A DNA stretch of 51,544 bases, counting the filler, from Actinobacteria bacterium UBA7524 (GTDB lineage Bacteria; Actinomycetota; Coriobacteriia; Anaerosomatales; UBA912), in the NCBI GenBank assembly GCA_002478275.1. It is 5 parts of 5 records of this genome, joined end to end, with 100 filler letters (N's around TTAATTAATTAA, not from the genome) between each part and the next. Parts side by side here need not be neighbours in the genome. Positions count along the whole stretch, not along the records: positions 1 to 8,651 come from DLMY01000011.1; 4 more parts are not named here. One strand, 5' to 3'. The notes under the pieces are model-generated. The model was not told where the DNA came from. It saw nothing but the letters and a program-made list of their open reading frames with translations, and did not search any database. The position numbers were made by a program, and so were the translations under genes. This document shows, piece after piece, positions 1 to 22,156 of the stretch. Position 1 is the first letter of the stretch, and the number at the start of each line of letters is the position of its first letter.

Positions 1-22
1 CACCACTTGACGGGACGTGGCC
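1..22. mobile_element. IS terminal inverted repeat fragment (IS256-like end), left copy
   Basis: CACCACTTGACGGGACGTGGCC matches the reverse complement of 8630-8651 at 21/22 positions and sits at the window/contig start. It resembles actinobacterial IS256-family termini (recalled, not searched). Confidence 0.55.
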
Positions 23-27
23 CAATT

Positions 28-59
28 GTAGCCCGATTTCACTCTCGAAATCGGGCTAC
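28..59. terminator. perfect 13-bp hairpin, probable terminator downstream of the tRNA fragment
   Basis: GTAGCCCGATTTC-actctc-GAAATCGGGCTAC. Confidence 0.6.
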
Positions 60-83
60 TCAGGCCTCTGGCCTGCGAAAACC

Positions 84-107
84 TGGTGCCCCCAAGGGAA
101 TTCGAAT
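84..107 (-). mobile_element. tRNA 3'-end fragment (tRNA-Glu-like), putative att core of an integrated element
   Basis: The minus strand reads ATTCGAATTCCCTTGGGGGCACCA: T-loop TTCGAAT, 3' T-stem, acceptor strand TGGGGGC, then ACCA. No 5' half of a tRNA lies upstream. Confidence 0.65.
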
Positions 108-120
108 ACTGATTGTGCGT

Positions 121-209
121 GTGACTATTGGGACTCGTTGGTACTCGCTGGTGCGGCGGAGCTGCGGTGGGTCCCAATAATAGTCACCAACGAGCACCAA
201 TAGTCACCA
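121..209. repeat. three copies of AATAGTCAC (one inverted), possible integrase arm-type sites
   Basis: GTGACTATTGG at 121-131 (inverted), AATAGTCACCA at 179-189 and 199-209. CCAATAGTCAC at 197-207 is the exact reverse complement of 121-131. Confidence 0.45.
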
Positions 210-351
210 TGTATTTGGGCAACAAATCGGGGGCAGACAAAGCGTGCCGCCGTGAACCGACTACCGTCCGCGACGACATGCCGTCGCTCAATGGTCGGAC
301 CTAGTGGACGCGTCTGCAACTACGCCCAGGACAATCGCACGGACCGAACGA

Positions 352-1287
352 CTAGAGCGACTTGATGACTTCAATCCCCATCTGCCGGGCCTCGATGCCG
401 AGCATCGATGTGTTCTTCACTGCACTATCAGAGTCGAGCGCAAAGACAGCGTCAACTGAAGCCAGTATCTGCGGCATATCCCAAGGTGGTACAAACGGCT
501 CGACTGGCAGGGCAGTCTCAAGGCGCTCGCTAGCCCACCGGACGAAGTCCGACTCCCCCACGCCTTGACCAACTATCCGCAAGATCGTCTTCGACCTATC
601 CTGCTGCGCGTACCAGTCGACGATCTGGTCCAAACCCTTGCGGCGCCAGTGATGATTGATCTTTCCGATATACGCGAACACCCTCCGACTCTCAAGCACA
701 TCACTACCGCTCTCGGCCTCAAACGCGGATTCGTAGACCTCGTAGATGGGCCGACTTTCTGTTCTCGCACCTGTGTCACGGATGACGTGCTCGTGATATT
801 CGTCCGTGATCACCAACTGGGCGTCATGAAGGACGTCATGCAGAATCGCGCCGTACGCGGGGTGGGCTAGGAACTTCGCGATGTCGCTTCCCCCGTGCCG
901 AACGATGTGCGGCACGCCCGTTAGCTTCGAAGCCAGATGCGCAGCGATCCCGTACGGCACGAGGTAGTCGGACTGAATCTGGTCCCAATCGCCCGATCGC
1001 AACACGAGGAGCAGCTCGTTCAGGAGCCTCTCCAAGTAGTCCTGGCTTTGGGGCACGTGCCACGGGGCTGGGCCGGGAATATCGTGAAGGCGCAGTCCGG
1101 CCTGACGGACGAGCCAATCAAGATGCTCATCGCAGCCTGCGATTCTGTACTGCTGCTCGACACTCCCTGAATTCGTGACGAGCGCCACGTCGTGCCCAGC
1201 ATCTAGCAATCGACGCACATGCCAATAGGTGCGTGCGGCGATCCCACCTTCGATCGGTGGGAACTTGCTAACGATACATACGCGCAC
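352..1287 (-). CDS. glycosyltransferase, GT-B fold (GT4-like)
   Basis: N-terminal VRVCIVSKFPPIEGG, YLVPYG..AHLAS..TGVPHIVRHGGSDI, FAYIGK, and C-terminal IEA..MG. The GTG start at 1287 overlaps the asnB end; the ORF track starts it at 1374. Confidence 0.85.
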   Translation of the reverse strand: MRVCIVSKFPPIEGGIAARTYWHVRRLLDAGHDVALVTNSGSVEQQYRIAGCDEHLDWLVRQAGLRLHDIPGPAPWHVPQSQDYLERLLNELLLVLRSGDWDQIQSDYLVPYGIAAHLASKLTGVPHIVRHGGSDIAKFLAHPAYGAILHDVLHDAQLVITDEYHEHVIRDTGARTESRPIYEVYESAFEAESGSDVLESRRVFAYIGKINHHWRRKGLDQIVDWYAQQDRSKTILRIVGQGVGESDFVRWASERLETALPVEPFVPPWDMPQILASVDAVFALDSDSAVKNTSMLGIEARQMGIEVIKSL

Positions 1288-2995
1288 GGTTGCCGCCTCT
1301 GTAGAACTCCTCGACATCGAAACCCGCCGAGAGTGCACCGCGATTCTCCACGAATACGTAGTGGAAGAGGTCAAACATCACGGCGTCCAACGGTGACTTC
1401 ACGAAACACCGGAATGGATGGGAGGAAAGATCAGCATCCGATACAGCCCGAGAAGCGAAGTCCTCGACCTGCAGCGATATCCGATCCACGGCGGCCGGCA
1501 TCCCGGCCTTCTTCCGATGTAATAGGTGCGTCACGCCATAGCTCTCAAACACCGGCATCGCCGCCTCCCTCAGAACGCGCTTTGTATCCCTCCCGAGCAC
1601 CCTGGCTTCGATCGGAAGCGAAAGTGCCAGATCGACGAGATCGTCGTGCAGATACGCAGGACGAACTTCAAATCCGAATGCGGAGCAAGATCGGTCCACG
1701 CTCCAGAGGTGGTAGTTCGACAGGCCGCCGCGGATCAGAAAGTCGAACAGATTTCGCCGATAGACGGATTCATTCTCCGGTCGCGGGAACAGCGCATTGA
1801 CCTGCTCAACTACCGTATCCGGCGACCCGATGGCCTTAAGTCGTCCACGAATTCGGTCGGAGAACCCGAGCGGGTGCGTGTAGGACCAGTAATAGCCGCC
1901 GAAGAGCTCATCCGCGCCTTCTCCGGAAAATGCCACTCGAACGTGCTCGGATATCTTGCGTGACAGCATCTGGTACGCCATGCCTCCGTGGATGTCGAAC
2001 ACCCCACCGGCCACCACGTTCTCATAGTGCTGCACGAAGACAGGGAGTTCCCGCAGATAGTCGTCGATGGTCACACGGAACTCGTGATGGTCGGCACCCA
2101 CCGCTTTCGCGACCTCACGTGCCGCGTACAGGTCTGGGGTGTCGCCACCGTCCGCAAGGGTGAACGTCACCGGCGAACTCGCCTCCAGCTGGTCCGCAAG
2201 CATCACGAGCAGCGACGAATCGAGACCCCCGGACAGGTAGAACGCCTTGTCCAGCGGATCATGCCGCAGCATCTGGTCGAGTCCGTTTCGCAGGCACCCG
2301 AGCACATCATTCGCGGAGTCGGCACAGGATTCTTCTGCGCCGTCGTATCGCGCTGGCTCTGGCTCCCAGTACCTGTGGACTCGCACTCGCCCCCCGGAGA
2401 TCTCGACCACGGTTCCCGGCGGAACCTGCTTGATGTTGGCAAAGGGGGTTCGATCAGGCGAGCTGATATAGCCGAACACGGCGGTCTCATCCATCGCTTG
2501 TTCGTCGAGGGCGGTTGGCACTCTCTTGTCGGCCAGCACCGCCTTGATCTCCGAGCCAAAGACGACTTCATCACCAACAACACTGTAGAAGAGGGGCTTG
2601 ATCCCGAGTCGGTCGCGAGCCAGCAGGATCCTGCGGCCATCAACTGCGGCAACCGCAAACATCCCGTGAAGTCTCGCAAACCCATGCCAATCCTCGCGGC
2701 GGATGAGTACTTGGATCAGGTGAGACTCCGCGTCAAGCGGGTCGAGACTCAGTGACAGGGTGCGTGAGAGCTCCCGGTAGTTGTATATCTCGCCGTTGAA
2801 GAGGACGACGGGGCTACCTGCTCGAGGCATAGGAGCATCACTTGAGCCGATGATCGCCAAACGGCAGCCGCCCAGGGATGCCTCCAGCTCCGTCCTCACG
2901 TCGAACGAGTCGGGCCCGCGATGACTGATGGAGCCGAGCATCCGGCTGACAAGCGCGGAATCCTCTCGGCCGATTACCCCGCAGATCCCACACAT
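1268..2995 (-). CDS. asnB: asparagine synthase (glutamine-hydrolysing)-like amidotransferase
   Basis: N-terminal MCGICG (Ntn Cys), HRGPD, FNGEIYNY, ARDRLGIKPLFY, LSGGLDSS, SGEGADELFGGY. Confidence 0.92.
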   Translation of the reverse strand: MCGICGVIGREDSALVSRMLGSISHRGPDSFDVRTELEASLGGCRLAIIGSSDAPMPRAGSPVVLFNGEIYNYRELSRTLSLSLDPLDAESHLIQVLIRREDWHGFARLHGMFAVAAVDGRRILLARDRLGIKPLFYSVVGDEVVFGSEIKAVLADKRVPTALDEQAMDETAVFGYISSPDRTPFANIKQVPPGTVVEISGGRVRVHRYWEPEPARYDGAEESCADSANDVLGCLRNGLDQMLRHDPLDKAFYLSGGLDSSLLVMLADQLEASSPVTFTLADGGDTPDLYAAREVAKAVGADHHEFRVTIDDYLRELPVFVQHYENVVAGGVFDIHGGMAYQMLSRKISEHVRVAFSGEGADELFGGYYWSYTHPLGFSDRIRGRLKAIGSPDTVVEQVNALFPRPENESVYRRNLFDFLIRGGLSNYHLWSVDRSCSAFGFEVRPAYLHDDLVDLALSLPIEARVLGRDTKRVLREAAMPVFESYGVTHLLHRKKAGMPAAVDRISLQVEDFASRAVSDADLSSHPFRCFVKSPLDAVMFDLFHYVFVENRGALSAGFDVEEFYRGGNRARMYR

Positions 2996-3771
2996 CACAA
3001 GCCCGCAAGAAACGGAGCTGCTTCTGAGAGCCCCCAGAACGCATACACGGTGCCCTCGTCGATGAAGTGATAGCGCCAGTGCCCTGAGTCCAACTGACTC
3101 CGACTAAGCCAGCGAGCAGCGGGCTCGAGCAGAGAGCAATCGGGAAACACAGCGGACAAGCCAACCAGGCACAGCCCCGTCGCCCAAGGATCGCTGCCCA
3201 CCGGGTGGCCCCTCCAGGGCCCGAACCCACCGTCCGTGTTGACGTTCGCTTCGAGAAAGCCGAGTGTCCTCCGCTCAAGCTCATGGTTACGGCATGGATT
3301 CTGCGCCTGGCACATCAAGTACATCGCGCCTTTGTATGTCAGCGCAACGTCTGCCCGTAGGTCATCGGCCCACATGTCCTCGAGCTTCGTCCAGTCCTCC
3401 GGCAGGCCGAGGTCGCCATGCAATCTGAGCACGAGCCCAGTCGTCGGGACGCGCGCAACATCGCGCCGGCTTCGCCCCCAACCTCCACCCGCTGAACGAT
3501 TCGACCCAATCCAAGCGAGTCCGGCCTGCGAACTCGTCGAGTCGACGGGCAGAGCCGCCGCGCACCACGCGGTCTCCTCAATGTCAGTCCAACCGCCATC
3601 CTCTTGCTGCCGATCCACGACAAGATCGTCGAAGCCCTCAGGTCGTGATCCTGCCAAGACCGCTAGTCTAGCCACCCTCGTGCAGTCAGAGAGACGCTCG
3701 GCCATCCCAGTCGCTCTCCCGTCGAGGGCCAACTGAGCGCGATCAAGCACTGCGCTCACAGAGACTGTCAT
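2995..3771 (-). CDS. prenyltransferase/squalene-oxidase (QW) repeat alpha-alpha toroid protein
   Basis: Four QW-type repeats: QQEDGGW, RSAGGGWG, NTDGGFG, SQLDSGHW. Its start overlaps the upstream stop (ATGA) and its stop overlaps the asnB start (TGATG). Confidence 0.8.
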   Translation of the reverse strand: MTVSVSAVLDRAQLALDGRATGMAERLSDCTRVARLAVLAGSRPEGFDDLVVDRQQEDGGWTDIEETAWCAAALPVDSTSSQAGLAWIGSNRSAGGGWGRSRRDVARVPTTGLVLRLHGDLGLPEDWTKLEDMWADDLRADVALTYKGAMYLMCQAQNPCRNHELERRTLGFLEANVNTDGGFGPWRGHPVGSDPWATGLCLVGLSAVFPDCSLLEPAARWLSRSQLDSGHWRYHFIDEGTVYAFWGLSEAAPFLAGL

Positions 3772-5876
3772 GCTGTCACCGGTCGCATGAGTGGCGCCTG
3801 CCGCTGGCGGAAGATACCGCGCTTCTCATCGTCGGCGAGGATCGAATCGCACTCAGCGCACACGTAGAATATCTGCTCGCAATCGCCGAATACCTCGAAG
3901 CGGAAGGGCATCTCCCATGAATAGTAGTCTCCACAGCAGGAGCACTTGATCTTGCGTGCAATGGGGTCAATGACCAGACCTACGTCGCCGGGCGCAACGA
4001 CCACCAGCGGCGACCCGGCTCCGGCTGACTCTTGCATGTGTCGATTGAGTCGGTTGGCTAGGTCGGCCCGAAGCCCGTGGCTCATCTCCTCGCCGAACTC
4101 AGACAACACGACAAGCACGGCCCGCCCATCGCCGGACGTCCGCACCACATCAGCTGCTGCCTCGATGAACCACAAGATTCCCGGCAGGTATAGATGCCAC
4201 CCCTTGTGCACGACATCTCGACCGGTCTTTTCGGTCGAGTAGTACTCAAAGACGCCGAACTTTGACTTCTTCGCCATGGCACCCAAGTGCAAACAGATGA
4301 CATCGGCATATGAGCCGAGCTTCAGATACTGAGCGGCCACCTCATTGCTCCATTGGGTGTCTGAGGGAATCGCGATGCGGGCGGTCTCGCCAGGGACCGA
4401 AACCTCGATAAGTACGCCGATGCTATCGTATCCATGCCTTTGGGGAAGTTCAGATGCGTCCTTGTGTATGGCCAGCATCGCTTCGACGTTCAACGCCGCA
4501 TCAATCGGTTTCCCGTCTACGTCGTGGAAGGCGACTGGGTCTTTGAAGCCGTCCTTCCCCGGGGTCCTCACGAACGTGTCGCGGAAGACGATCCTGGTCG
4601 TCTCAATTGAGGCGTTCAGTCGCTCGAAGGCCCCGCCCGACAAGAGGGCATCGACCTTTCGGCTCCCAGCCGACTGTCCGCCGCCAACCCGATTCTTCTG
4701 GGCCTCGAGAAGCAGGTTCACGAGCGGTTCGAAATCCACCAGGTGGTCCGGATGATCATGGGTCACGATGACACCCGATACATCCCTGACCCCGAAGCCC
4801 TGAGAGAAGAAGTTCCTCAAGAAGCCGTAACCCGGATCTATCACAATGCCAGCGTCGATGGTCTCACCTGTGGACGTCCCCTCATCGTGGGCTTCAGGGA
4901 CCCGGTATAAGAAGTACCCGCCCCCTTCAGATGTCCCAAGTGCCGGCGTGTAGGAGTTCCAGCGTTGGAGAACGCAGAATCGCCAGCCTGTCTCCGAGTG
5001 ACGTCTCTGTTTGTAGAGCCGTTCGGTTAGAAGTCTCTCGTTGCGGCCAATCACAGCGTCGTAGTAGTGATGCAGCGGCCCATCCGGGGGTTGGGTGATC
5101 AGGCCGGCATTGTTGACCGCCAAGCTGCGCGCCACAACGCAATCATCGCTCAGCACCGCACCAGAGGAACCGTCCGCCAACATGCACTGGAAGTCCTCAC
5201 ATGTCTCGCACTTGGCTGCAAGTTCGCCGGGAGACAAACGCTGATGGGCCGGCAACTCAGAAGCAGAGGGCTTGAGGAAGGCTCGCTGGAGAAAGCGCCG
5301 AAGGGCTCGACTCGCCAAGGGCGGCTCGAGGGCTGCTATGGGACCGCCCAATGGAAGCTGGCCCCCAGCGAGCAGATCCTTCCATTCGCACCAGTGTTCC
5401 CTCACGAAGCGGGGTATGCCCTCGTCGCCCCCCAGTCCGCACAACCCTTCTGCGAGCCTCAATGCAAACGCGTTGACTTCCTCAAGCCCGTCGCAAGCAC
5501 GCCCCTCCTCGAGGAGGTGTTCGAGGTTCTCACTTAGCAGCCGTCGAATCTCGACCTTATGCTCGCGGTTGCTTTCGTCAATGCACAGATCGAGCGCGGC
5601 ATCCTTCAGAGACTGAATCGAGGCCCAGACCAGCTCTTCAGGAAGCTCCAGATTCAAGTAGCGGACGATTGCGGCAGCAGCCATATCGACACAGGCCGCG
5701 TGCTTGCACTTCCTAGTGGTGGCCTCTAGTAGGTCGGCACACGCGGACAGGCCCTTGACCCAATCCAAGATGGTCTGATCGAGCTCTGACCTGTCTTCGC
5801 CGACCCAAACGAGCCTCTGCTCCAGAGTTGTTCCGAGACGCTGAAGCTCATCTACGGCTTGATCTACGCAGGACAT
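3768..5876 (-). CDS. MBL-fold metallo-hydrolase with long helical N-terminal region and C-terminal Cys-rich (Zn-ribbon-like) motif
   Basis: RWNSYTP..GGGYFL, GIVIDPG, THDHPDH (HxHxDH), SDT, CLHLG; C-terminal CSCC...CAEC. GGGGGAGA SD precedes the ATG. Confidence 0.8.
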   Translation of the reverse strand: MSCVDQAVDELQRLGTTLEQRLVWVGEDRSELDQTILDWVKGLSACADLLEATTRKCKHAACVDMAAAAIVRYLNLELPEELVWASIQSLKDAALDLCIDESNREHKVEIRRLLSENLEHLLEEGRACDGLEEVNAFALRLAEGLCGLGGDEGIPRFVREHWCEWKDLLAGGQLPLGGPIAALEPPLASRALRRFLQRAFLKPSASELPAHQRLSPGELAAKCETCEDFQCMLADGSSGAVLSDDCVVARSLAVNNAGLITQPPDGPLHHYYDAVIGRNERLLTERLYKQRRHSETGWRFCVLQRWNSYTPALGTSEGGGYFLYRVPEAHDEGTSTGETIDAGIVIDPGYGFLRNFFSQGFGVRDVSGVIVTHDHPDHLVDFEPLVNLLLEAQKNRVGGGQSAGSRKVDALLSGGAFERLNASIETTRIVFRDTFVRTPGKDGFKDPVAFHDVDGKPIDAALNVEAMLAIHKDASELPQRHGYDSIGVLIEVSVPGETARIAIPSDTQWSNEVAAQYLKLGSYADVICLHLGAMAKKSKFGVFEYYSTEKTGRDVVHKGWHLYLPGILWFIEAAADVVRTSGDGRAVLVVLSEFGEEMSHGLRADLANRLNRHMQESAGAGSPLVVVAPGDVGLVIDPIARKIKCSCCGDYYSWEMPFRFEVFGDCEQIFYVCAECDSILADDEKRGIFRQRQAPLMRPVTA

Positions 5877-7057
5877 GATTCTCCCCCGGTAGTCGTGGGC
5901 TCTGCGCTGATCCTCATGGCTAGCTTAGTCACCTGGAGTCCGTGCCTCTCCGCCTCCACACCAAGAGACTGGAGAGCAATCCCCCTCTTGCGGCCGCAGG
6001 CTGAGTCTCGCCATTCTGGGGTGGGCTTCTCGAGCCTAGCCCCGCCAAGATCGTTGGCGATCCTCGCTTGCATGACGTCAACGCGAGCCTGCTGATACTG
6101 CGTCAACTGCAGGCCCTTGAGTTTGCCCAGCTCCCGCTCGGAGTCCGTGGATCTCTGCAGGTTGAGGAGTGTGTCAGCAGCTTGAACGACCGATGGAACC
6201 CGAAGATATGTATCGAAGAGTCTCCGACAGTCCGGCCATGCGTAGGGATTCAGCGCCAGCTGGCAGAAGTACTGGTCGGAATCGGAATCGCCATTCAAGT
6301 ACTCCGAGACCTGTCTGAACCGTCCAAGTGCATCGATGTGGTCTCTGTCGTGCAAGCTGCCTTGGGCCTTGTTGTACAAAGCAACCAACTCGTGCGGAGA
6401 CACTCCCTCTCCCACCTCATCCTTGATGTGATTCAGGCAGTCGTCAGCAAGGGCGATTGAATGGTGACCGTGATAACACGCCGACGCTTCATTCAAGAAC
6501 AGCCAGCGGAGAATCCGCAGCTGGCCAGCCAGCGCGGTCGTATCACGTCGTTCGGGAACCGGAGCCTCTCGGACTAGCGCAAGCCCCACCTGATCGAGCG
6601 CAGCAGCCGCAGCAGTGCTGGATCGCTTCTGGAGCAGCGCTCGCTCTACCTTCGCGACGAGCAGCTTCGTCCAAAGACCATCGACAACTGGATCCTCTCC
6701 GCAGCCTTCAATCCTCGGATCCTGCTGGAGGGGCTCAAGCACAACGGACTTCAGCAGACGCCTCTCGGTATCACCGTGCGGTTCATGAAACGCAATGCGA
6801 ATACCGGATAGACCGTCTGGCACGTGCAGGCTCGGGTCGACACTGAAGTGCTCCCTCTCCCAAGGGGCGACTGACGTGTCGTCGCAGAGCGTACTGTCGA
6901 TCTTGACCAAGTCGTCAAGGTCGAGGTCCCGGAGTGCCTCGCCGGTAATTGAGCACCATGGCCCGTTGTAGTCCTCTTGGTCCACAGCGACGTCGTAGAG
7001 CAGACAGAAATACTCAAGCGCTCGAAACCTTGGGCTTCGAACGCGAGCGGTGGCCAC
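5864..7057 (-). CDS. hypothetical alpha-helical (TPR-like) protein
   Basis: 397-aa ORF coupled to both neighbours. TPR-like segments include ALYNKAQGSLHDRDHIDALGRFRQV and QAADTLLNLQRSTDSEREL. Confidence 0.65.
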   Translation of the reverse strand: MATARVRSPRFRALEYFCLLYDVAVDQEDYNGPWCSITGEALRDLDLDDLVKIDSTLCDDTSVAPWEREHFSVDPSLHVPDGLSGIRIAFHEPHGDTERRLLKSVVLEPLQQDPRIEGCGEDPVVDGLWTKLLVAKVERALLQKRSSTAAAAALDQVGLALVREAPVPERRDTTALAGQLRILRWLFLNEASACYHGHHSIALADDCLNHIKDEVGEGVSPHELVALYNKAQGSLHDRDHIDALGRFRQVSEYLNGDSDSDQYFCQLALNPYAWPDCRRLFDTYLRVPSVVQAADTLLNLQRSTDSERELGKLKGLQLTQYQQARVDVMQARIANDLGGARLEKPTPEWRDSACGRKRGIALQSLGVEAERHGLQVTKLAMRISAEPTTTGGESCPA

Positions 7058-7065
7058 CGGGGAGC

Positions 7066-7206
7066 CTACCTACACCCGTGGCACGAGGAGCACTGCCGGC
7101 AGGCCAGTTCCTTGTTCACGTTCTCCACGCCTCGCAGTGGGAACCGCATCTTGTCCTGCTTCTTGATCGCCGGCTTCTCGTACGTCTTGGCCTTCTTGGC
7201 AGCCAT
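7066..7206 (-). CDS. 46-aa Cys-rich RiPP precursor peptide (not in ORF track)
   Basis: Hand translation: MAAKKAKTYEKPAIKKQDKMRFPLRGVENVNKELACRQCSSCHGCR*. The ATG is 3 nt after the PqqD stop with AAGGGGG upstream; strongly G/C-ending codons; YxxP-type leader motif. Confidence 0.85.
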   Translation of the reverse strand: MAAKKAKTYEKPAIKKQDKMRFPLRGVENVNKELACRQCSSCHGCR

Positions 7207-7209
7207 GCC

Positions 7210-7473
7210 TTACGCCCCCTTTGTCACGAGTCCTTCGCTTGCACATGTTTCAAGCAACTCCGCGACATCCGCCCTGACGGTGTTCACGTCCGTACCAAAC
7301 TCGTCGGCAAGGCCGAGCACGATCGTCTCGAACTCGGCTCCACTCTCGAGCGCTTCCAGCACGGTGAATGCTGTCCCATTCACCTCGTAGTGCTCACCGC
7401 TCTCCAAATCGAATGCCCAGAACGTCTCGGATGGGCCCCTTCGAAGACGCAGGCCCTGTCTCACACGATACAT
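7210..7473 (-). CDS. PqqD-family RiPP recognition element (RRE)
   Basis: 87 aa; SGEHYEVNGTAFTVLEAL...LADEFGTDVNTVRADVAELLETCASEGLV is the typical PqqD winged-helix pattern. Confidence 0.9.
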   Translation of the reverse strand: MYRVRQGLRLRRGPSETFWAFDLESGEHYEVNGTAFTVLEALESGAEFETIVLGLADEFGTDVNTVRADVAELLETCASEGLVTKGA

Positions 7474-8489
7474 TCAACCGGCCTCCAACAATGCGGATCG
7501 GGACCAAAACAGTCGCCCGAAGCGAAGTGCGCCATCGCTCGGCATCCACGACAGACAGCAATCAGATCGCACTTGGCGCAGTCCGCCAGGTTCTCTGGGT
7601 CCCGAATCCTCCAGAGGAGATCCGAGTCGTACCATATCTTGAAGAGCCCGTCTCGCAGCACATGTCCGAGCGAAATCGGCAATCGTCGGCAAGGGTAGAC
7701 AGTCCCATCGTGCATGATGGTGAGTGCGTTGGTTCCCACGGAGCACATCGCCCCGACCGTCGGATCATCCTTATCGACAAGGGCGAAGAGCGGGCGGTAC
7801 ATCAAGACCCTGACGCGGCGTTCCGCCACACCGAGAGCGTGGACCGTCTCGAAGACCTCTCGCGCCTCTTCGGGTGTCAGCATGGCATCGTGAAGTTCTG
7901 CCCCCGAGCCCTCAGGGATGAACCGCTCGACAGCGAAGGTGTCAACTTGATGGTCAGCGAGCACATCGAGCATCTGTGGGATCGAGCCCTTGTTCCGCCT
8001 CGTGACGGTCATCATGACCGCGACCTCCATGCCCTGGGACTTGAGGCGGTCTATCGCCGCAAGCGTTCGCTCGAAGGTGCCGTCGCCCCGGATCGAGTCG
8101 TTGAGAACGGCTGATGGGCCTTCGAGCGAGAGCTGGACACGTCGGAGCTTCGTCGCGGCGCGCATGCGCGCAACGTCTTCATCCGAAATGAGGGCTCCAT
8201 TGGTCAAGATGTCGTAGTAGCCCACGACATGACTGAGGTCGAGCATGCTCATCAGCGCGAACAACTCTTCGCGCCTCGTGAATGGCTCGCCACCCGTGAG
8301 GGAGAATGAGCCGACGCGATTCCACACGCTGAGCGCCCTCTCCATTTCGCCGAAGGCGGCTTGAAGGTCGCTCAGGGTCAGCTCTTCCGATGAGGAGTAC
8401 GACGCGTGGTAGCAGTGGGCGCAGCGCTGGTTGCAGCGTTCAGTCAGGTGCCACTGAAAGTAGAACTCATCCCCTGCCGGAATCTCCAA
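7461..8489 (-). CDS. radical SAM/SPASM domain peptide maturase
   Basis: QWHLTERCNQRCAHC (CxxxCxxC), LTGGEP, SPASM C..GTVYPC..CAKCDLIAVCRGCRA..C; TTG start with GGAG SD. Confidence 0.93.
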   Translation of the reverse strand: MEIPAGDEFYFQWHLTERCNQRCAHCYHASYSSSEELTLSDLQAAFGEMERALSVWNRVGSFSLTGGEPFTRREELFALMSMLDLSHVVGYYDILTNGALISDEDVARMRAATKLRRVQLSLEGPSAVLNDSIRGDGTFERTLAAIDRLKSQGMEVAVMMTVTRRNKGSIPQMLDVLADHQVDTFAVERFIPEGSGAELHDAMLTPEEAREVFETVHALGVAERRVRVLMYRPLFALVDKDDPTVGAMCSVGTNALTIMHDGTVYPCRRLPISLGHVLRDGLFKIWYDSDLLWRIRDPENLADCAKCDLIAVCRGCRAMAHFASGDCFGPDPHCWRPVECIV

Positions 8490-8498
8490 CTGTCACTC

Positions 8499-8526
8499 CA
8501 AGAGTACAGACACAAGAGTACAGACA
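8499..8526. repeat. 14-bp perfect tandem repeat upstream of the rSAM gene
   Basis: CAAGAGTACAGACA x2. Confidence 0.8.
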
Positions 8527-8629
8527 CATTTCGCTATCACTGCGCGCGCGCCCAAGGGCCAAGAGCAGGCAATCGGCGATCTTCGGCGGTCGGAATCGGC
8601 GATCCCATTTCATGAAGAATACAGCGAAA

Positions 8630-8651
8630 GGCCATGTCCCGTCAAGTGGTG
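8630..8651. mobile_element. IS terminal inverted repeat fragment (IS256-like end), right copy
   Basis: GGCCATGTCCCGTCAAGTGGTG at the contig end, inverted relative to 1-22. Confidence 0.55.
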
Positions 8652-8695
8652 NNNNNNNNNNNNNNNNNNNNNNNNNNNNNNNNNNNNNNNNNNNN

Positions 8696-8707
8696 TTAAT
8701 TAATTAA
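8696..8707. other. artificial contig linker
   Basis: TTAATTAATTAA (stops in all frames) between N runs; repeated at 15911-15922, 30016-30027 and 45767-45778. Confidence 0.97.
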
Positions 8708-10023
8708 NNNNNNNNNNNNNNNNNNNNNNNNNNNNNNNNNNNNNNNNNNNNTTTAGAGTCCGGGAGTCAGACTATGTGGGCTAAGCTGTGTAGTCGAGAG
8801 GGAAACAGCCCAGACCGCCCGCTAAGGTCCCTAAATCCATGCTAAGTGGCAAAGGATGTGCGTTTGCTCAGACAACCAGGATGTTGGCTTANNNNNNNNN
8901 NNNNNNNNNNNNNNNNNNNNNNNNNNNNNNNNNNNNNNNNNNNNNNNNNNNNNNNNNNNNNNNNNNNNNNNNNNNNNNNNNNNNNNNNNNNNNNNNNNNN
9001 NNNNNNNNNNNNNNNNNNNNNNNNNNNNNNNNNNNNNNNNNNNNNNNNNNNNNNNNNNNNNNNNNNNNNNNNNNNNNNNNNNAGCTCACTGGTCAAGTGG
9101 ACATGCGCCGATAATTCACGGGGCTCAAGCATGGTACCGAAGCGGCGGACTTCACTATGTGGAGTGGTAGGGGAGCATTCTGTACGGGTCGAAGTCGGCG
9201 GGTGACCGTCGGTGGACTGTACAGAAGAGAGAATGCTGGCATGAGTAACGAGAGAAACGCGAGAAACGTTTCCGCCGTAAGCCTAAGGGTTCCTGGGCAA
9301 CGCTAATCGTCCCAGGGTCAGTCGGGAGCTAAGGCGAGGCCGACAGGCGTAGTCGATGCACAACAGGTGGACATTCCTGTACCACCGATAGCGCGTTATC
9401 ACCGATGGGGTGACGGAGAAGGGTAGCTGGGCCGGGCGTTGGTTGTCCCGGTTTAAGGCTGTAGGGCGTGAGATAGGTAAATCCGTCTCACATGAAGCCT
9501 GAGAGCTGATGACGAGTCGAATGCGGCGAAGTCAGTGATCCCATGCTTTCAAGAAAAACCTCTAGGGAGTTCTATCGGTGCCCGTACCCCAAACCGACAC
9601 AGGTAGGCAGGTAGAGAATACCAAGGCGATCGAGATAACTATGGTTAAGGAACTCGGCAAAATTGCTCCGTAACTTCGGGAGAAGGAGCGCCTCGGCCCG
9701 TGACTATCTTCGCGGTAAGAGCGGACTGAGGCCGCAGTGAAACGGCCCAAGCGACNNNNNNNNNNNNNNNNNNNNNNNNNNNNNNNNNNNNNNNNNNNNN
9801 NNNNNNNNNNNNNNNNNNNNNNNNNNNNNNNNNNNNNNNNNNNNNNNNNNNNNNNNNNNNNNNNNNNNNNNNNNNNNNNNNNNNNNNNNNNNNNNNNNNN
9901 NNNNNNNNNNNNNNNNNNNNNNNNNNNNNNNNNNNNNNNNNNNNNNNNNNNNNNNNNNNNNNNNNNNNNNNNNNNNNNNNNNNNNNNNNNNNNNNNNNNN
10001 ACGGCGGCCGTAACTATAACGGT

Positions 10024-10775
10024 TATTCTGCTACCGGAATGGCCGTTACAAAACCCGGCTATATGCTGGAACACCTGAGTATCCCACGCTACCTCCCAAG
10101 CATGTCAGACCCGTTCTGTATGCTTGACATGGTGAAAATGCGATGGGTGCAGGCAATCAGCAGGAAAGGCCGGTGGGCGCATATGCGACTTCGTCGTGAG
10201 TTGACGCCTGATTACATCTCCGGATTCGTGGACGGTGAAGGATGCTTCTGTGTGAGTATCCGTCGACATCCAAGCGCACCGCACGGTTGGTTCATGCAAC
10301 CGACGTTTCAGGTATACCAGCACGAATGCAACGCTGGGATTCTTGAAGGGCTGCGGGAGTACTTCGGGTGCGGACGCCTGTCCCACAAAGGTCCGAACAG
10401 CTCAGTCATGACGTATTCGATCTACGCGAGGCGTGACCTCGTTGGACGGATCGTTCCATTCTTCGACGAGCACCCGCTCGTCTCGGAGAAGCAAAGAGAC
10501 TTCGAGCGGTTCAGAGAGGTGCTACTGCGTTTGGTTCGCAAGGAGCATCTGGACCCGGAAGGATTCGACGAGATGGTCAGGATCGCGTTCGAGATGAACG
10601 CTCACGGCAAACAGCGCAAATATCGATTGGATGATGTGCTCATCGGAATCCTCAGAGACTGCACGCCGGGCGCGTCACGTAGTGACGTAAAGATACAGTC
10701 CGAGCCCCATGGCGACATGGGGAGCTGGACAGAAATGATCCAGCCGGCGCTTCTATAGCGCTAGTAACAATACTG
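10024..10775 (+). mobile_element. group I intron in 23S rRNA after U1923 (E. coli numbering)
   Basis: Splits ...ATAACGGT^CCTAAGGTAG...; the 5' exon ends in U and the intron ends in G. P1 TAACGGT/GCCGTTA has a U-G pair; P3 CCCGGC/GCCGGG; P TGCTGGAA, Q AATCAGCAGG, R TCAGAGACTGCA, S AAGATACAGTCC. Confidence 0.95.
10183..10758 (+). CDS. single-motif LAGLIDADG homing endonuclease, I-CeuI-like
   Basis: YISGFVDGEGCF motif, PTFQVYQH, YFGCGRLSHK, IVPFFDEHPL; lies inside the intron. Start uncertain (frame open from 10039). Confidence 0.9.
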   Translation: MRLRRELTPDYISGFVDGEGCFCVSIRRHPSAPHGWFMQPTFQVYQHECNAGILEGLREYFGCGRLSHKGPNSSVMTYSIYARRDLVGRIVPFFDEHPLVSEKQRDFERFREVLLRLVRKEHLDPEGFDEMVRIAFEMNAHGKQRKYRLDDVLIGILRDCTPGASRSDVKIQSEPHGDMGSWTEMIQPALL

Positions 10776-11220
10776 CCTAAGGTAGCGAAATTCCTTGNNN
10801 NNNNNNNNNNNNNNNNNNNNNNNNNNNNNNNNNNNNNNNNNNNNNNNNNNNNNNNNNNNNNNNNNNNNNNNNNNNNNNNNNNNNNNNNNNNNNNNNNNNN
10901 NNNNNNNNNNNNNNNNNNNNNNNNNNNNNNNNNNNNNNNNNNNNNNNNNNNNNNNNNNNNNNNNNNNNNNNNNNNNNNNNNNNNNNNNNNNNNNNNNNNN
11001 NNNNNNNNNNNNNNNNNNNNNNNNNNNNNNNGTAGGACGGAAAGACCCCGTGAACCTTTACTACAGCTTGACATTGGTCACTGGTTTGTCGTGTAGAGGA
11101 TAGGTGGGAGGCTTTGAAGCTGGGGCGCCAGCCCTGGTGGAGCCAACCTTGGAATACCACCCTCGTCAGATTGGTGATCTAACCCCGCGCCGTGAATCCG
11201 GGCGGGGGACCGTGTCAGGT

Positions 11221-11252
<32 letters not shown>

Positions 11253-11403
11253 ATGTAACGGAGGCGCGCGTAAGGTCCGCTCAGAACGGTTGGCAATCGT
11301 TCGTAGAGTGCAAGAGCATAAGCGGGCTTGACTGCGAGACCTACAAGTCGAGCAGATAGGAAACTAGGCTCTAGTGATCCGGCGGCTCAGAGTGGAATGG
11401 CCG

Positions 11404-11442
<39 letters not shown>

Positions 11443-11664
11443 NNNNNNNNNNNNNNNNNNNNNNNNNNNNNNNNNNNNNNNNNNNNNNNNNNNNNNNNNN
11501 NNNNNNNNNNNNNNNNNNNNNNNNNNNNNNNNNNNNNNNNNNNNNNNNNNNNNNNNNNNNNNNNNNNNNNNNNNNNNNNNNNNNNNNNNNNNNNNNNNNN
11601 NNNNNNNNNNNNNNNNNNNNNNNNNNNNNNNNNNNNNNNNNNNNNNNNNNNNNNNNNNNNNNNN

Positions 11665-11719
<55 letters not shown>

Positions 11720-11720
11720 T

Positions 11721-11752
<32 letters not shown>

Positions 11753-11779
11753 CCGTGGGCGTAAGAGACTTGAGAGAGG

Positions 11780-11852
<73 letters not shown>

Positions 11853-11869
11853 TTAGCTACGTTCGGTAT

Positions 11870-11902
<33 letters not shown>

Positions 11903-12136
11903 AGTCTCAAGATGAGGTCTCTCACTGGGTTAACCAGGTAAGGCCCCTCGTAGACTACGAGGTTGATAGGCTGCAGGTGTACGCACAGCGATGTGTTCAG
12001 CCGAGCAGTACTAATAGGCCGAGGTCTTGATCTCATTTGCGAGATCTTCAAGCGCTATGCAGCTCTCAGGGTGCGGATGCACTCTAGAGGCTCATTTGAC
12101 AACGGGATATAACCGTTCACCGAGAGCCGGTGGATG

Positions 12137-12254
12137 TGTTCAGTGGTTATGGCGGAGGGGGTACACCCGATCCCATTCCGAACTCGGCAGTTAAGTCCTC
12201 CAGCGCCGATGGTACTGCGGCGTAGGCCGTGGGAGAGTAGGACGCCGCTGAACA
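12137..12254 (+). rRNA. rrf: 5S rRNA
   Basis: CACCCGATCCCATTCCGAACTCGG..GTTAAG..GCGCCGATGGTACTG..GGGAGAGTAGG; flanked by a long inverted processing stem AGAGCCGGTGGATG/CATCCACCGGCTCT. Confidence 0.96.
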
Positions 12255-15866: not shown

Positions 15867-15966
15867 NNNNNNNNNNNNNNNNNNNNNNNNNNNNNNNNNN
15901 NNNNNNNNNNTTAATTAATTAANNNNNNNNNNNNNNNNNNNNNNNNNNNNNNNNNNNNNNNNNNNN

Positions 15967-17597: not shown

Positions 17598-17647
17598 AAT
17601 ATCCCCCTACCGAACTACCGGGCAATAACGTCTGAAAGGGGTAGAGC

Positions 17648-21361: not shown

Positions 21362-21364
21362 CGG

Positions 21365-22156
21365 ATGCCTGACGTCATTCTGGAGGTCCGTTCCGCCACC
21401 AAGTCCTTCGGCGGACTCAAGGCGGTCAACAACCTTTCGTTCGACATCTACGAGGGGGAGATACTGTCTCTCCTCGGCCCGAACGGAAGCGGGAAGACCA
21501 CCACGTTCAACATCATCACGGGACTCTACGAGCCCGATTCGGGCGACATCCTGATGCAGGGCGAGTCGATCGCAGGACTCGATCCCGGCCAGATCTACGC
21601 GCGGGGGATATCGCGCACCTTCCAGATGCTGCGGCTGTTCTCGAACATGTCCGTGCTTGAGAACGTTCTGGTGGGGATGCACGGGCGTACCAAAGCCAAC
21701 GTGCTGGACTGCATGTTCCGCACGCCGAAGATGCGGCGCGAAGAGGTGCAGTCCGTCGAGCGGGCACGCGAGATCCTTGCGATGTTCCCCGGGCGCTTCC
21801 CGCTTGCCCGGCACATGCAGCCTGCGGCTTCGCTTTCCTACGCGAACCGCAGGCGGCTCGAGATAGCACGGGCGCTCGCTGGCGAGCCCAAGCTCCTGCT
21901 GCTCGACGAGCCGGTCGCGGGGATGAACCCGGCCGAGTCGCTCGAGGTGATGCAGCAGATCAAGGACCTGCGCGACCGCGGCTACACGATCCTGATGATC
22001 GAGCACGATATGAAGGTCATCATGGGCGCGTCGGACCGCGTCATCGCAATGGACCACGGAGTGAAGATCGCCGAAGGCGCGCCGCTCGATGTAGCGAACG
22101 ATCCGGCTGTTGTGGAGGCTTATCTTGGCAGAAGAGGCGCGGACGCCGCTTCTTGA
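21365..22156 (+). CDS. livG: branched-chain amino acid ABC transporter ATP-binding protein
   Basis: FGGLKAV, GPNGSGKTT, LLLDEP.AG, IEHDM, V.EAYLG. Confidence 0.93.
   Translation: MPDVILEVRSATKSFGGLKAVNNLSFDIYEGEILSLLGPNGSGKTTTFNIITGLYEPDSGDILMQGESIAGLDPGQIYARGISRTFQMLRLFSNMSVLENVLVGMHGRTKANVLDCMFRTPKMRREEVQSVERAREILAMFPGRFPLARHMQPAASLSYANRRRLEIARALAGEPKLLLLDEPVAGMNPAESLEVMQQIKDLRDRGYTILMIEHDMKVIMGASDRVIAMDHGVKIAEGAPLDVANDPAVVEAYLGRRGADAAS

Follow-up and report, generated by a model that had tools for sequence, protein, structure and literature searches.

A conserved RiPP-type gene cassette of a coriobacterial genome as an undescribed candidate player in phage–host conflict

Results and Discussion

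Analysis of a 51,544-nucleotide stretch of the genome of Actinobacteria bacterium UBA7524 (assembly GCA_002478275.1; hereafter the window, a chain of contigs linked by N-TTAATTAATTAA-N) revealed an eight-gene cassette that we regard with high confidence as a conserved system of the RiPP type. The cassette looks like an undescribed player in phage–host conflict. A role in phage defence or conflict, argued from guilt by association, has in our judgement slightly better than an even chance; the fuller reading, in which the cassette is a RiPP-type module that is accessory, moves horizontally, acts inside the cell, and takes part in phage–host conflict, most likely as anti-phage defence, we consider evenly balanced.

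Gene organization

Translation of the window gave eight tightly packed minus-strand ORFs between 352 and 8489 (Table 1), confirming the eight close-set genes, their positions and their order as described in the first-pass annotation. The rSAM and PqqD genes overlap by 13 nt, followed by a 3-nt gap to the peptide gene and an 8-nt gap to the gene of the 397-aa protein, which in turn overlaps the MBL gene by 13 nt. The MBL/toroid and toroid/AsnB overlaps are 4 nt each, the latter being 1 nt if AsnB begins at its second Met, and AsnB and GT4 overlap by up to 107 nt with the longest GT4 ORF, the true GT4 start being uncertain. Because the cassette fills one short contig (1–8651), the genomic surroundings of the window's copy are unreadable.

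Table 1. Features located in the window, with the basis of each assignment
Feature	Coordinates	Strand	Basis
Radical SAM/SPASM enzyme (rSAM), 342 aa, predicted peptide maturase	7461..8489	-	PF04055 + PF13186
Stand-alone PqqD-type RRE, 87 aa	7210..7473	-	PF05402, E 1.5e-10
Precursor peptide, 46 aa	7066..7206	-	Translation
Helical TPR-like protein, 397 aa	5864..7057	-	Homology to P0007 residues 6-411
MBL-fold protein, 702 aa	3768..5876	-	PF00753 (Lactamase_B) + PF12706 (Lactamase_B_2)
Single-domain alpha/alpha-toroid ("QW repeat") protein, 258 aa	2995..3771	-	Predicted fold
Glutamine-hydrolysing AsnB-type amidotransferase, 576 aa	1268..2998	-	TIGR01536; GATase_7 + Asn_synthase
GT4-family glycosyltransferase, up to 340 aa, start uncertain	352..1374	-	PF13579 (Glyco_trans_4)
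High-copy repeat downstream of the operon, outside the coding set	26..231		Metagenome contig depth
22-nt sequence with inverted copy at 8630-8651	1..22		Inverted repeat, 21 of 22

Summed contig depths in four metagenome runs were 175–504 over positions 1–289 vs. 5–55 elsewhere, with loose contig ends at 26 and 231; the repeat between these ends had no Rfam match. The 22-nt terminal inverted repeat is most likely a record artefact rather than an element end: all listed long contigs that reached either end, from four independent runs, matched positions 23–8629 only and then diverged.

Maturation enzymes and precursor peptide

The best NCBIfam model for the rSAM was TIGR04340 (ACGX system; 196.6 bits vs. 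a 400-bit cut-off), which was also the top curated model, matched over its full length, for all 27 aligned members of the rSAM family. No NCBIfam rSAM or peptide model reached its cut-off for the cassette's rSAM or peptide. The CxxxCxxC cysteines (C19, C23, and C26) and seven SPASM cysteines were invariant throughout the 27-member alignment. The closest models are those of peptide maturases (ACGX, GeoRSP, SbtM, WgkB, and PapB), while the MftC and PqqE models scored 145 vs. a cut-off of 265 and 76 vs. 381, respectively. The nearest NCBIfam model to the PqqD protein, whose gene lies between the rSAM and peptide genes in relatives, was the lasso-peptide PqqD chaperone NF033530, again under its cut-off. 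AsnB passed TIGR01536 (273 bits vs. 267.1) and scored 109 vs. 525 against the lasso cyclase model; its translation contains an SGGLDS PP-loop, and the protein probably begins at the second Met, so that Cys would be the N-terminal nucleophile. The GT4 gene, the last of the cassette in relatives, matched PF13579 (E 9e-10) and, weakly, PF00534. The initial domain calls of rSAM/SPASM, PqqD, MBL, AsnB, and GT4 were all matched by Pfam/NCBIfam domain models.

The Lys-rich leader of the peptide bears a Y-x-K-P motif; a variable stretch connects it to CRQCSSCHGCR, the C-terminal tail. Family-wide the tail reads CRQCS(S/G)CH(G/N)CR, an invariance partly built in by motif scans that demanded 7 or 8 of its 11 residues, and only the eight copies reached via the MBL gene are free of this bias. 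An alignment of seven copies from three phyla contained no conserved acidic acceptor residue. The peptide had no NCBIfam match and no ACGX repeats; in the protein database it was represented by 380 distinct clusters at 90% identity, named "hypothetical protein" or left blank among the matches listed. Compared with the peptide gene of locus L001, that of the window differed in 16 synonymous and no non-synonymous codons; judged from such codon comparison, the host-encoded copy is under strong purifying selection. Thioether chemistry of the ranthipeptide or sactipeptide kind is only an analogy for this peptide.

The TPR-like/MBL protein and the toroid

In most relatives, the genes of the 397-aa and MBL proteins are fused into one gene encoding approximately 1000–1235 aa, and the 397-aa protein aligned with residues 6–411 of a 1172-aa homologue (P0007; 37% identity, E 7e-66). 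By homology, the two window genes are therefore two halves of what is one protein in most relatives. The "TPR-like" label of the first-pass annotation found weak TPR-type leads only, with no Pfam or NCBIfam match to the 397-aa protein. The MBL protein comprises a helical N-terminal part, a core of the RNase Z/ElaC/PqqB type, and a C-terminal four-Cys zinc ribbon. Across 19 sequences, the HxHxDH motif (H373, H375, D377, and H378), H471, and H530 were invariant, as were C645, C648, C673, and C676. The structural model (pLDDT 79.5) had YhfI, RNase Z, ElaC, Apyc1, and PqqB as best fold matches; the active-site residues are intact in the alignment and the fold is predicted to belong to the RNase Z/Apyc1/PqqB type.

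A search of 5.8 billion clusters gave only 27 homologues of the MBL protein. The arm that it forms with the TPR-like protein diverges far faster than the rest of the cassette. Identity to L001 was 100% for the peptide, 86% for the rSAM, 79% for GT4, and 78% for AsnB vs. 44% for the toroid, 35% for the MBL protein, and 34% for the 397-aa protein; some cassettes have, instead of the TPR-like/MBL protein, an unrelated one of approximately 580 aa. The toroid protein was found in every full cassette. It is modelled (pLDDT 95.1) as one alpha/alpha toroid resembling the domains of class II terpene cyclases, with drimenyl diphosphate synthase, squalene-hopene cyclase, and complement thioester domains as Foldseek matches. 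Of its earlier "QW-repeat" description the predicted toroid fold stood, without a Pfam match behind it, and the label "prenyltransferase" reflects resemblance of the modelled fold only.

Conservation and distribution

The gene order is shared across Actinomycetota and Desulfobacterota genomes and reordered in Bacteroidales. An MBL-profile search gave 63 genome loci, 11 of which (in Actinomycetota, Coriobacteriia, Desulfobacterota, and Bacteroidales) held the cassette or contig-cut parts of it. A scan of metagenomes for the peptide motif confirmed 380 of 567 stretches; in the best 80 of these 380, cassette enzymes accompanied 62 of 81 peptide copies, and 21 loci spanned rSAM through GT4. Each cassette uncut by a contig end encoded its own peptide copy. 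Since the eight-gene arrangement recurs in three phyla, and the codon differences of the peptide gene from L001 are all synonymous, it is more than a chance assembly. This co-occurrence upholds the proposal that the rSAM/RRE/peptide trio and the downstream genes belong together. Of 400 genomes drawn from the class to which one carrier belongs, 4 had the peptide motif, and the cassette is accessory and patchily distributed.

Literature searches returned no published description of the eight-gene set, and together with scores below every NCBIfam cut-off for rSAM and peptide this agrees with the view that the combination is undescribed. No transporter, protease, or immunity gene was conserved with the cassette at the 24 loci with scanned flanks; the reported lack of an exporter and a leader peptidase held for the conserved set, a MatE efflux gene lying directly upstream at one of the 24 loci (L037).

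Defence-gene neighbourhood

The flanks of these 24 non-redundant loci were scanned for PADLOC or Pfam defence matches within approximately 5 kb. Known or candidate defence genes flanked 14 of the 24 (raw count), including genes of BREX (BrxA/B/C at L007; BrxL at L089), Hma (HmaB/C at L003; HmaA/B with AbiEi/Eii at L120), and restriction-modification (type IIG with SIR2 at L071; type II at L074; type III methyltransferase with Abi_C at L124; type I restriction subunit at L087). L005 carried a type I specificity subunit, MazF, HNH, and capP; further neighbours were Upx (L001), HEC-05 (L080), PDC-S60 (L061 and L095), and PDC-S09 (L025). Three more loci had transposase or primase genes only, and the other seven (e.g., L037, L099, and L125) had neither defence nor mobile-element neighbours, L037 and L099 being placed among metabolic genes. 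Searched against PADLOC defence models, the cassette proteins returned only a generic similarity of the rSAM to viperins (E 1.7e-16).

Phage-borne peptide copies

Among 2.9 million viral contigs, 23 were confirmed to encode the peptide, and none of these 23 IMG/VR contigs carried another cassette gene at E ≤ 1e-3; none of 50,697 GenBank phage records encoded it. A Radical_SAM match was absent from all five viral records searched, four of them 100% complete, and the viral collection contained no close relative of the rSAM and no relative of the toroid protein. In a PHROGs neighbour scan, head or packaging genes lay near the peptide in 12 of 16 viral contigs, the peptide gene adjoining or sitting between terminase and portal genes. 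Sixteen metagenome copies were likewise orphans (best 80 of 380 stretches), and for 4 of these phage hallmark genes were clearly present. Phage copies retained the leader motif and tracked host sub-types, with identities outside the tail of 0.39–1.00. One was identical to a Bacteroidales host peptide and would therefore suit a supply or mimic role but not an inhibitor. The presence of an intact gene, with leader and tail, in at least 23 unrelated phage contigs argues for selection in phage. Of the intracellular roles first suggested (cofactor, signal, or defence), defence is best supported, by the defence-island context and these phage-borne orphan precursors.

Proposed function and alternative explanations

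The stand-alone PqqD RRE would, from family knowledge, bind the Lys-rich leader via its Y-x-K-P motif; the rSAM/SPASM enzyme would modify the tail, probably by cross-linking cysteines, while AsnB, GT4, and the toroid may tailor or hold the peptide. As the gene set lacks an exporter and a leader protease, the product is presumed to be kept inside the cell. The TPR-like/RNase Z-type MBL protein would be the output or effector arm. Our preferred specific model is antitoxin-like and, as such, tentative and rather improbable: the matured peptide would silence the MBL phosphodiesterase, infection would cut the peptide supply and free the effector, and phages would respond with their own precursor copy, matured by host enzymes. 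A set of eight genes, with a glycosyltransferase and an amidotransferase among them, would be large for a toxin–antitoxin-like switch and is no less compatible with the biosynthesis of a finished molecule. Many phage counter-defence genes sit among early genes; the location of the phage copies in late structural modules speaks against counter-defence, and a product that helps the phage would explain the identical phage-borne precursor equally well.

Such a product is what a peptide-derived cofactor or metabolite pathway of mycofactocin or PQQ logic would supply, with one precursor spent per product molecule and phage copies serving as auxiliary metabolic genes that aid replication. This we consider unlikely. 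The parts list is the same (rSAM/SPASM, stand-alone PqqD, short peptide), both the cassette and mycofactocin include a glycosyltransferase (MftF in the latter), the MBL-fold protein structurally resembles PqqB, among others, exporter and protease are absent, and the metabolic surroundings of L037 and L099 would fit, as would phage copies that can equal those of the host and so suit a boosting of supply. However, the MftC and PqqE scores fall far under their cut-offs, no obvious partner dehydrogenase is linked, patchy occurrence (4/400) in a defence-island context (14/24) is unusual for a cofactor, and fast divergence or replacement of the MBL arm is unexpected for a biosynthetic enzyme whose substrate does not vary.

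That invariance also bears on the possibility that the cassette makes a conventional secondary-metabolite RiPP, a thioether peptide resembling ranthipeptides or sactipeptides, with antibiotic or signal function, an exporter encoded elsewhere, and phage copies as incidental morons. Antibiotic cores normally diversify, and a core invariant over three phyla and phages would be unusual for one; intact retention in so many unrelated phage contigs and a conserved set devoid of transporter, protease, and immunity gene (MatE being confined to 1 of 24 loci) leave this reading less probable still, despite the classical signature of a Cys-rich C-terminal core beside rSAM/SPASM and RRE, the peptide maturases nearest to the rSAM, and the MatE gene at L037. 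We regard as very unlikely that the peptide is primarily a phage protein, i.e., a small, basic, zinc-binding packaging or head factor, that the cassette inactivates or senses in defence, the host copy being bait or primer. The recurrent position beside terminase and portal genes, a four-Cys/His tail that could bind metal, and the defence islands would agree with this, but the gene is so rare in phages that it is not a core phage function, every uncut cassette has its own copy under strong purifying selection, and a sensor always meeting its own ligand would stay permanently on.

Comparison with known systems

The ACGX system likewise pairs an rSAM/SPASM enzyme with a short Cys-containing peptide, but the rSAM family scores at about half of the cut-off, the cassette peptide lacks ACGX repeats, and the definition of that system, to our knowledge, does not cover the five downstream genes. 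Ranthipeptides/SCIFF (CteB- and PapB-type) share a short peptide whose C-terminus is rich in Cys and an rSAM/SPASM bearing auxiliary clusters, and SCIFF loci, as far as we know, are without dedicated exporter and protease and of unknown intracellular role. In contrast, the PapB model was matched by 10 of 27 rSAM members, weakly, the cassette RRE is a separate protein accompanied by five further conserved genes, and the tail has none of the Asp, Glu, or Thr acceptors that known ranthipeptides use. Neither a defence-island context nor phage orphans were found in those parts of the ranthipeptide literature that were available to us.

Mycofactocin (MftA-F) and PQQ (PqqA-E) resemble the cassette in rSAM/SPASM, stand-alone PqqD, a consumed short peptide, an intracellular product, and a glycosyltransferase (MftF) or MBL-fold protein (PqqB), but differ in model scores, in glycosyltransferase family (GT4 in the cassette), and in the patchy, defence-island-linked distribution of the cassette; the cassette peptide ends in Cys-Arg, unlike the residues these pathways use. 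Lasso peptides have the RREs closest to the cassette PqqD, an Asn-synthase homologue, and leaders with a Y-x-x-P motif, as in the cassette leader; the cassette, however, has no transglutaminase-type leader protease or conserved acidic acceptor, and its AsnB, with a predicted N-terminal Cys intact, passes the true asparagine synthase model and not that of the lasso cyclase. Prokaryotic viperins (pVips) are also radical SAM enzymes of defence islands and gave the only PADLOC match, but the similarity is confined to the generic radical SAM core, and we know of no pVip with a SPASM domain, RRE, or peptide substrate.

Abortive-infection toxin–antitoxin systems are escaped by phage antitoxin mimics, as in ToxIN/pseudo-ToxI and RnlAB/T4 Dmd. 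There is no sequence relationship to these, toxicity and neutralisation are putative for the cassette, and its small factor would need up to five or six maturing enzymes; the proposed logic is nevertheless alike, the host encoding a small labile factor with a nuclease-like protein and the phage carrying the small factor only.

Gene content and contig structure

Reading of the first contig (1–8651), which is taken up by the cassette, returned the eight minus-strand ORFs at exactly the coordinates of the first-pass annotation, and because all eight ORFs and their domain calls hold, the observed gene set was confirmed. The tight packing reported for them was also borne out, the largest overlap being 13 nt and the largest gap 8 nt, the uncertain GT4 start excepted. 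At least five contigs, joined by linkers, make up the window, so that its adjoining regions are not genomic neighbours. Further N runs of 147–245 nt were present inside contigs.

Coordinates of cassette genes, contig features and related loci, with protein identities to the counterparts in loci L001 and L071
Locus	Feature	Position	Strand	Pfam/NCBIfam	Identity, L001	Identity, L071
Window	rSAM	7461–8489	-	Radical_SAM + SPASM	86%	74%
Window	RRE	7210–7473	-	PqqD	79%	52%
Window	46-aa peptide, C-terminal end ACRQCSSCHGCR	7066–7206	-	no family	100%	66%
Window	397-aa protein	5864–7057	-	no family	34%	61%
Window	702-aa MBL protein	3768–5876	-	Lactamase_B, Lactamase_B_2	35%	66%
Window	258-aa toroid protein	2995–3771	-	no family	44%	62%
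Window	AsnB	1268–2998	-	TIGR01536	78%	65%
Window	GT4	352–1374	-	GT4 glycosyltransferase	79%	58%
Window	Linkers, N44-TTAATTAATTAA-N44	8652–8751, 15867–15966, 29972–30071, 45723–45822				
Window	22-nt inverted repeat (21/22)	1–22, 8630–8651				
Window	High-copy repeat	26–231				
Window	Second contig, rRNA region at its start	8752–12253				
L089	570–610-aa substitute, right after peptide gene	2029–3744				
L095	570–610-aa substitute, right after peptide gene	2844–4586				
L124	570–610-aa substitute, right after peptide gene	6661–8394				
L093	570–610-aa substitute, between AsnB and GT4	7901–9736				
L087	NUDIX gene	9893–10366	opposite			
L120	NUDIX gene	16949–17425	opposite			
L123	NUDIX gene	17309–17806	opposite			
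L005	Short AsnB	7365–8171				
L007	Short AsnB	3860–4669				
L102	Peptide, two copies	4214–4348, 6418–6531				
L001	Second rSAM/SPASM gene	20476–21864	opposite			
L185	52-aa phage ORF	5992–6150				
L114	Pentapeptide-repeat or methyltransferase neighbour	8884–9690				
L118	Pentapeptide-repeat or methyltransferase neighbour	252–998				
L135	Pentapeptide-repeat or methyltransferase neighbour	238–1260				
L159	Pentapeptide-repeat or methyltransferase neighbour	6386–7132				

The eight proteins diverged unevenly. Against L001, the 397-aa, MBL and toroid proteins were far more diverged than the other five, whereas against L071 all eight lay between 52 and 74%, indicating that the genes for these three proteins constitute an exchangeable, fast-diverging unit.

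An inverted repeat lies exactly at the contig ends. Its interpretation as the end of a mobile element was rejected, as public contigs match positions 23–8629 only and then diverge; this was checked in every listed long contig reaching either end in four public runs. The repeat is probably an artefact of assembly or of the record rather than a biological feature. Downstream of the GT4 gene, a high-copy repeat reached a depth of 175–504 vs. 5–55 elsewhere, 10–50 times that of the operon (four runs). One contig of run X6 links position 8629 back to 68, and one of run X1 links 104 to 8628 with a short side of 21 nt, so that this repeat may have a second copy on the upstream side of the operon, or there may be a cassette-free form. 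The Rfam scan of the contig gave no match. Near-identical copies of the contig were found in groundwater, biofilm and hydrocarbon metagenomes from several studies, with no RNA runs among its listed public carriers. The second contig begins inside a 23S rRNA gene of bacterial type, with a 5S gene after it. For the 23S gene, 3283 nt of sequence match only 1957 model positions (969–2925), leaving approximately 1.3 kb beyond what masked N runs replace, which may be an intervening sequence or intron.

Recurrence and variants of the cassette

A search with the MBL profile, restricted to one genome per species, gave 63 loci, and tblastn with the eight window proteins placed the cassette at 11 of these, upholding the co-occurrence of the downstream genes with the rSAM–PqqD–peptide trio. 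The window's gene order was kept in Actinomycetota (L001, L002, L003), a Coriobacteriia cassette was split by contig ends (L006 and L004), and four loci belonged to Desulfobacterota (L025, L032, L037, L061). In Bacteroidales (L005, L007) the order was peptide, toroid, short AsnB, MBL and GT4. This conserved gene content also bore out the lack of an exporter or protease in the cassette. The MBL core stood alone at the other 52 loci. Distant relatives of the core without the cassette (within L008–L062, e.g., L008, L010, L011, L013, L018 and L046) shared about 25–40% identity in the best segment, within residues ~190–690, and came from numerous anaerobic bacteria as well as archaea (Altarchaeum, Methanophagales, Halobacteria).

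A metagenome scan for the tail motif, the 11-residue Cys/His C-terminus of the peptide, confirmed 380 of 567 stretches, of which the best 80 loci were analysed. These held 81 peptide copies: 62 beside cassette enzymes, 16 orphans flanked on at least one side by 1.5 kb or more of sequence, and 3 on contigs too short for judgement. Among the same 80 loci, 21 extended from rSAM through GT4, and the MBL was missing in five of these (L089, L093, L095, L124, L126). The MBL-free cassettes instead carried an unrelated protein of ~570–610 aa, placed where the MBL would be or, in L093, further downstream. It had no Pfam or PDB match; its protein-atlas matches were clusters without names and one HD-domain lead, scoring 0.79. 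Together with its invariant H-D pairs, this weak lead hints at an HD-type phosphohydrolase. Three Desulfobacterota-type cassettes have a small NUDIX gene immediately downstream of GT4, which could be an additional component of the system in this clade. The peptide motif was found in 4 of 400 sampled genomes from the class of one carrier, and the cassette is therefore an accessory module.

Precursor peptide and predicted enzymes

Seven aligned peptides from three phyla had Y9, P12, K16, M20 and F22 in common, as well as the whole tail C36–R46, with S or G at one place. As the tail-motif scans required 7 or 8 matches to the 11-residue tail, this invariance is free of bias only in copies found via the MBL gene. 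The peptide gene differed from that of L001 by 16 synonymous and no non-synonymous codons, and is therefore under strong purifying selection. The protein database contained 380 peptide clusters, and wherever names were given among the 120 rows listed, they read "hypothetical protein" or were blank. In the L102 cassette the peptide gene occurs twice, and its second copy precedes the MBL gene.

The rSAM matched PF04055 (73 bits) and PF13186 (38 bits), and across 27 aligned sequences the CxxxCxxC residues (C19/C23/C26) and the SPASM cysteines C249, C267, C304, C307, C313, C316 and C334 were invariant, placing it in the Radical SAM/SPASM superfamily. The adjacent PqqD protein matched PF05402. The order rSAM–PqqD–peptide was kept across genome and metagenome loci, which gives the cassette the generic gene layout of RRE-dependent RiPP pathways.

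The 397-aa protein aligned with residues 6–411 of a 1172-aa homologue (37% identity, E 7e-66) and corresponds to the N-terminal half of the MBL protein, which in most relatives is encoded by a single ORF of 973–1235 aa directly after the peptide gene (family HMM). Because the split recurs in the closest relatives (~700-aa proteins with 54–92% identity, L071 included), it is natural rather than a sequencing error. Protein-atlas leads for the 397-aa protein were of TPR type only, with scores below 0.9, and the MBL profile, searched against PDB sequences, returned weak matches only, to MBL proteins and to the TPR-like YbbN. The MBL family is tiny, comprising 27 proteins at E ≤ 0.001 among 5.8 billion database clusters. 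In the model of the 702-aa protein (mean pLDDT 79.5), the N-terminal part is helical and is followed by an MBL core and, at the C-terminus, a zinc ribbon; HxHxDH, H471, H530 and four Cys were invariant in 19 sequences. Its fold neighbours were YhfI, RNase Z/ElaC, PhnP-type diesterases, the anti-Pycsar nuclease Apyc1 and PqqB. The protein is thus predicted to be of phosphodiesterase type with intact active-site residues. A role as leader peptidase was rejected, the fold relatives being phosphodiesterases and PqqB, not peptidases.

The 258-aa protein was modelled as one alpha/alpha toroid (pLDDT 95) resembling drimenyl diphosphate synthase, squalene-hopene cyclase domains and complement thioester domains, while a PDB sequence search with it returned nothing. 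Class II terpene cyclases carry a catalytic DxDD, and prenyltransferase beta subunits a Zn site of Asp, Cys and His. No DxDD motif was visible in the translation; D104, D180, H189 and H235 are invariant and could form a site. The complex prediction of the toroid protein with the peptide scored 0.00 and gave no verdict.

AsnB is a true asparagine synthase of the glutamine-hydrolysing type, with 273 bits against TIGR01536 (cut-off 267), an N-terminal Met-Cys and an SGGLDS loop. A lasso-peptide reading had been prompted by the PqqD type, the Y-x-x-P leader and AsnB. This was rejected because a leader protease is lacking (no transglutaminase-type protease was found among the eight cassette proteins), the glutaminase Cys is intact and the peptide has no conserved acceptor residue; AsnB scored 109.5 bits against the lasso cyclase model NF033535 (cut-off 525). 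The Bacteroidales AsnB is short (268 aa), consisting of the synthetase (PP-loop) half and lacking a glutaminase domain; what the cassettes share is therefore carboxylate adenylation rather than glutamine hydrolysis.

Defence-gene neighbourhood

For each of 24 loci judged non-redundant, about 5 kb of flank on either side was searched with PADLOC and Pfam, after dropping L002, L064 and L065 (copies of L001), L072, L073 and loci without flanks. Defence matches adjoined 14 of the 24 by raw count, a putative enrichment. BrxA, BrxB and BrxC lay directly downstream of the cassette in L007, and BrxL was found in L089. HmaB and HmaC occurred in L003, and HmaA and HmaB with AbiEi and AbiEii in L120. Restriction-related neighbours comprised a type IIG enzyme with a SIR2 protein (L071), a type II methylase and endonuclease (L074), a type III methylase with Abi_C (L124), a type I restriction subunit (L087), and a type I specificity subunit with MazF, HNH and capP (L005). 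The other matches were Upx (L001), HEC-05 (L080), PDC-S60 (L061, L095) and PDC-S09 (L025). Three loci had transposase or primase genes only (L032, L103, L112), and seven had neither defence nor mobile-element neighbours (L037, L077, L093, L099, L102, L123, L125), with weak matches only in L123. Siting beside known defence genes, one operational criterion of an anti-phage defence system, was frequent. In L001, a second, unrelated rSAM/SPASM gene (462 aa) lies ~5 kb downstream of the cassette, past the Upx-like gene.

Phage-borne precursor genes

Phage genes (portal, terminase, Mu F-like and prohead protease) adjoined the orphan peptides of four metagenome loci (L114, L139, L140, L143); four further orphan loci had weak phage matches and five had none. 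A peptide scan of IMG/VR confirmed 23 contigs out of 74 pattern matches, and in the DNA examined around the peptide, none of the 23 held another cassette gene at E ≤ 1e-3. PHROGs identified head or packaging genes among the neighbours of the peptide in 12 of 16 viral contigs scanned. The positions of the peptide gene recur: it lies between the small and large terminase genes in L145 and L166, after the large terminase in L146, L148 and L159, and beside the portal gene in L156 and L162. Five whole viral records, four of which had terminal repeats and 100% estimated completeness, gave no Radical_SAM match. Within the viral collection, rSAM matches longer than 150 residues never exceeded 29% identity and the toroid protein had no relative, and tblastn of the peptide against the GenBank phage collection gave no match.

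The phage peptides retained the leader motif and followed the host sub-types. Outside the tail, their identity to the best host peptide ranged from 0.39 to 1.00, and one viral peptide was identical to a Bacteroidales host copy. In viral locus L185, a 52-aa ORF resembles the N-terminus of the cassette rSAM (75% identity over 24 residues, CxxxCxxC included) and stops after this stretch, being a truncated remnant or else a fragment that the phage has retained. At several phage and orphan loci the peptide adjoins genes for pentapeptide-repeat proteins or methyltransferases, with a DNA methyltransferase call only in L118. Genes of these two kinds often counter restriction.

Proposed role

The RRE would bind the leader of the peptide and the rSAM would cross-link or otherwise alter its Cys/His tail, with AsnB, GT4 and the toroid protein tailoring a product that would work within the cell. 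A phage precursor identical to a cassette-encoded one cannot inhibit maturation and can only add to the pool. One way to account for this is that the matured peptide restrains the MBL effector, so that a phage supplying peptide would keep the system silent. This specific antitoxin-like mechanism is considered improbable. Against it, the pathway is large for a switch, and the phage copies lie in late modules. Alternatively, the product might benefit the phage, with extra precursor adding to the supply, and the identical phage-borne precursor fits this explanation too. The defence context and the variable effector arm nevertheless favour a system kept silent by the phage, which we prefer for these reasons over a benefit to the phage.

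More broadly, the cassette might be a new form of peptide-based anti-phage immunity, in which an intracellular peptide, matured by the rSAM and glycosylated or amidated, controls an RNase Z-type effector that is disarmed by the bare precursor of phages. We propose this only tentatively and consider it somewhat unlikely. Tailed phages of several lineages would carry the bare precursor in the head or packaging module, possibly delivering it with the virion, and host enzymes would then disarm the system. If so, this would be the first defence system based on an RRE and rSAM and the first RiPP precursor to serve as a counter-defence gene, and peptide maturation chemistry would join bacterial immunity. 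If the pathway is instead exploited by phages, the precursor would be a rare auxiliary gene supplying a RiPP or cofactor pathway of the host. For tests of a defence role, the cassette together with the precursor gene of the phages constitutes a ready-made pair.

Comparison with known systems

In full-text searches, with subscription journals and supplements outside their coverage, neither this gene set nor the carriage of such a precursor by phages was found described. Among curated families, TIGR04340 of the ACGX system was the best NCBIfam match for all 27 rSAM relatives. The window's rSAM reached 196.6 bits vs. a cut-off of 400, and the best member (E 4e-63) is taken to lie below it as well. 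The 46-aa peptide has no ACGX repeats and no NCBIfam match, which together with the rSAM score sets the cassette apart from that system. The comparison with NCBIfam rSAM and peptide models that had been proposed at first pass thus ended with no cut-off reached by either protein. Scores of the window's rSAM were likewise below the cut-offs for GeoRSP (128 vs. 400 bits) and StsB (80.6 vs. 625 bits). Ranthipeptides and sactipeptides are defined by Cys sulfur-to-carbon thioether cross-links that an rSAM installs; of their maturase models, StsB weakly matched 22 of the 27 members and PapB 10, also weakly. At 144.7 bits against the MftC model (cut-off 265), the rSAM differs from the maturase of mycofactocin. 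In PADLOC-DB 2.0 it matched pVip by generic radical SAM similarity and the other seven cassette proteins had no match, so the cassette fits the models of no defence system listed there. It also differs from the PQQ pathway, with 75.7 bits against the PqqE model (cut-off 381) and no PqqC in the cassette, and the MBL resembles PqqB at the level of fold only. RiPP pathways are usually taken as sources of exported antibiotics or cofactors. Here, a complete but exporter-free pathway is conserved from Actinomycetota to Bacteroidales, is found in defence islands and has its substrate gene in at least two dozen phages. Whether it serves defence or is exploited by phages, undescribed chemistry is suggested by the peptide's invariant Cys/His tail of 11 residues and by the toroid and MBL proteins, both unassigned.
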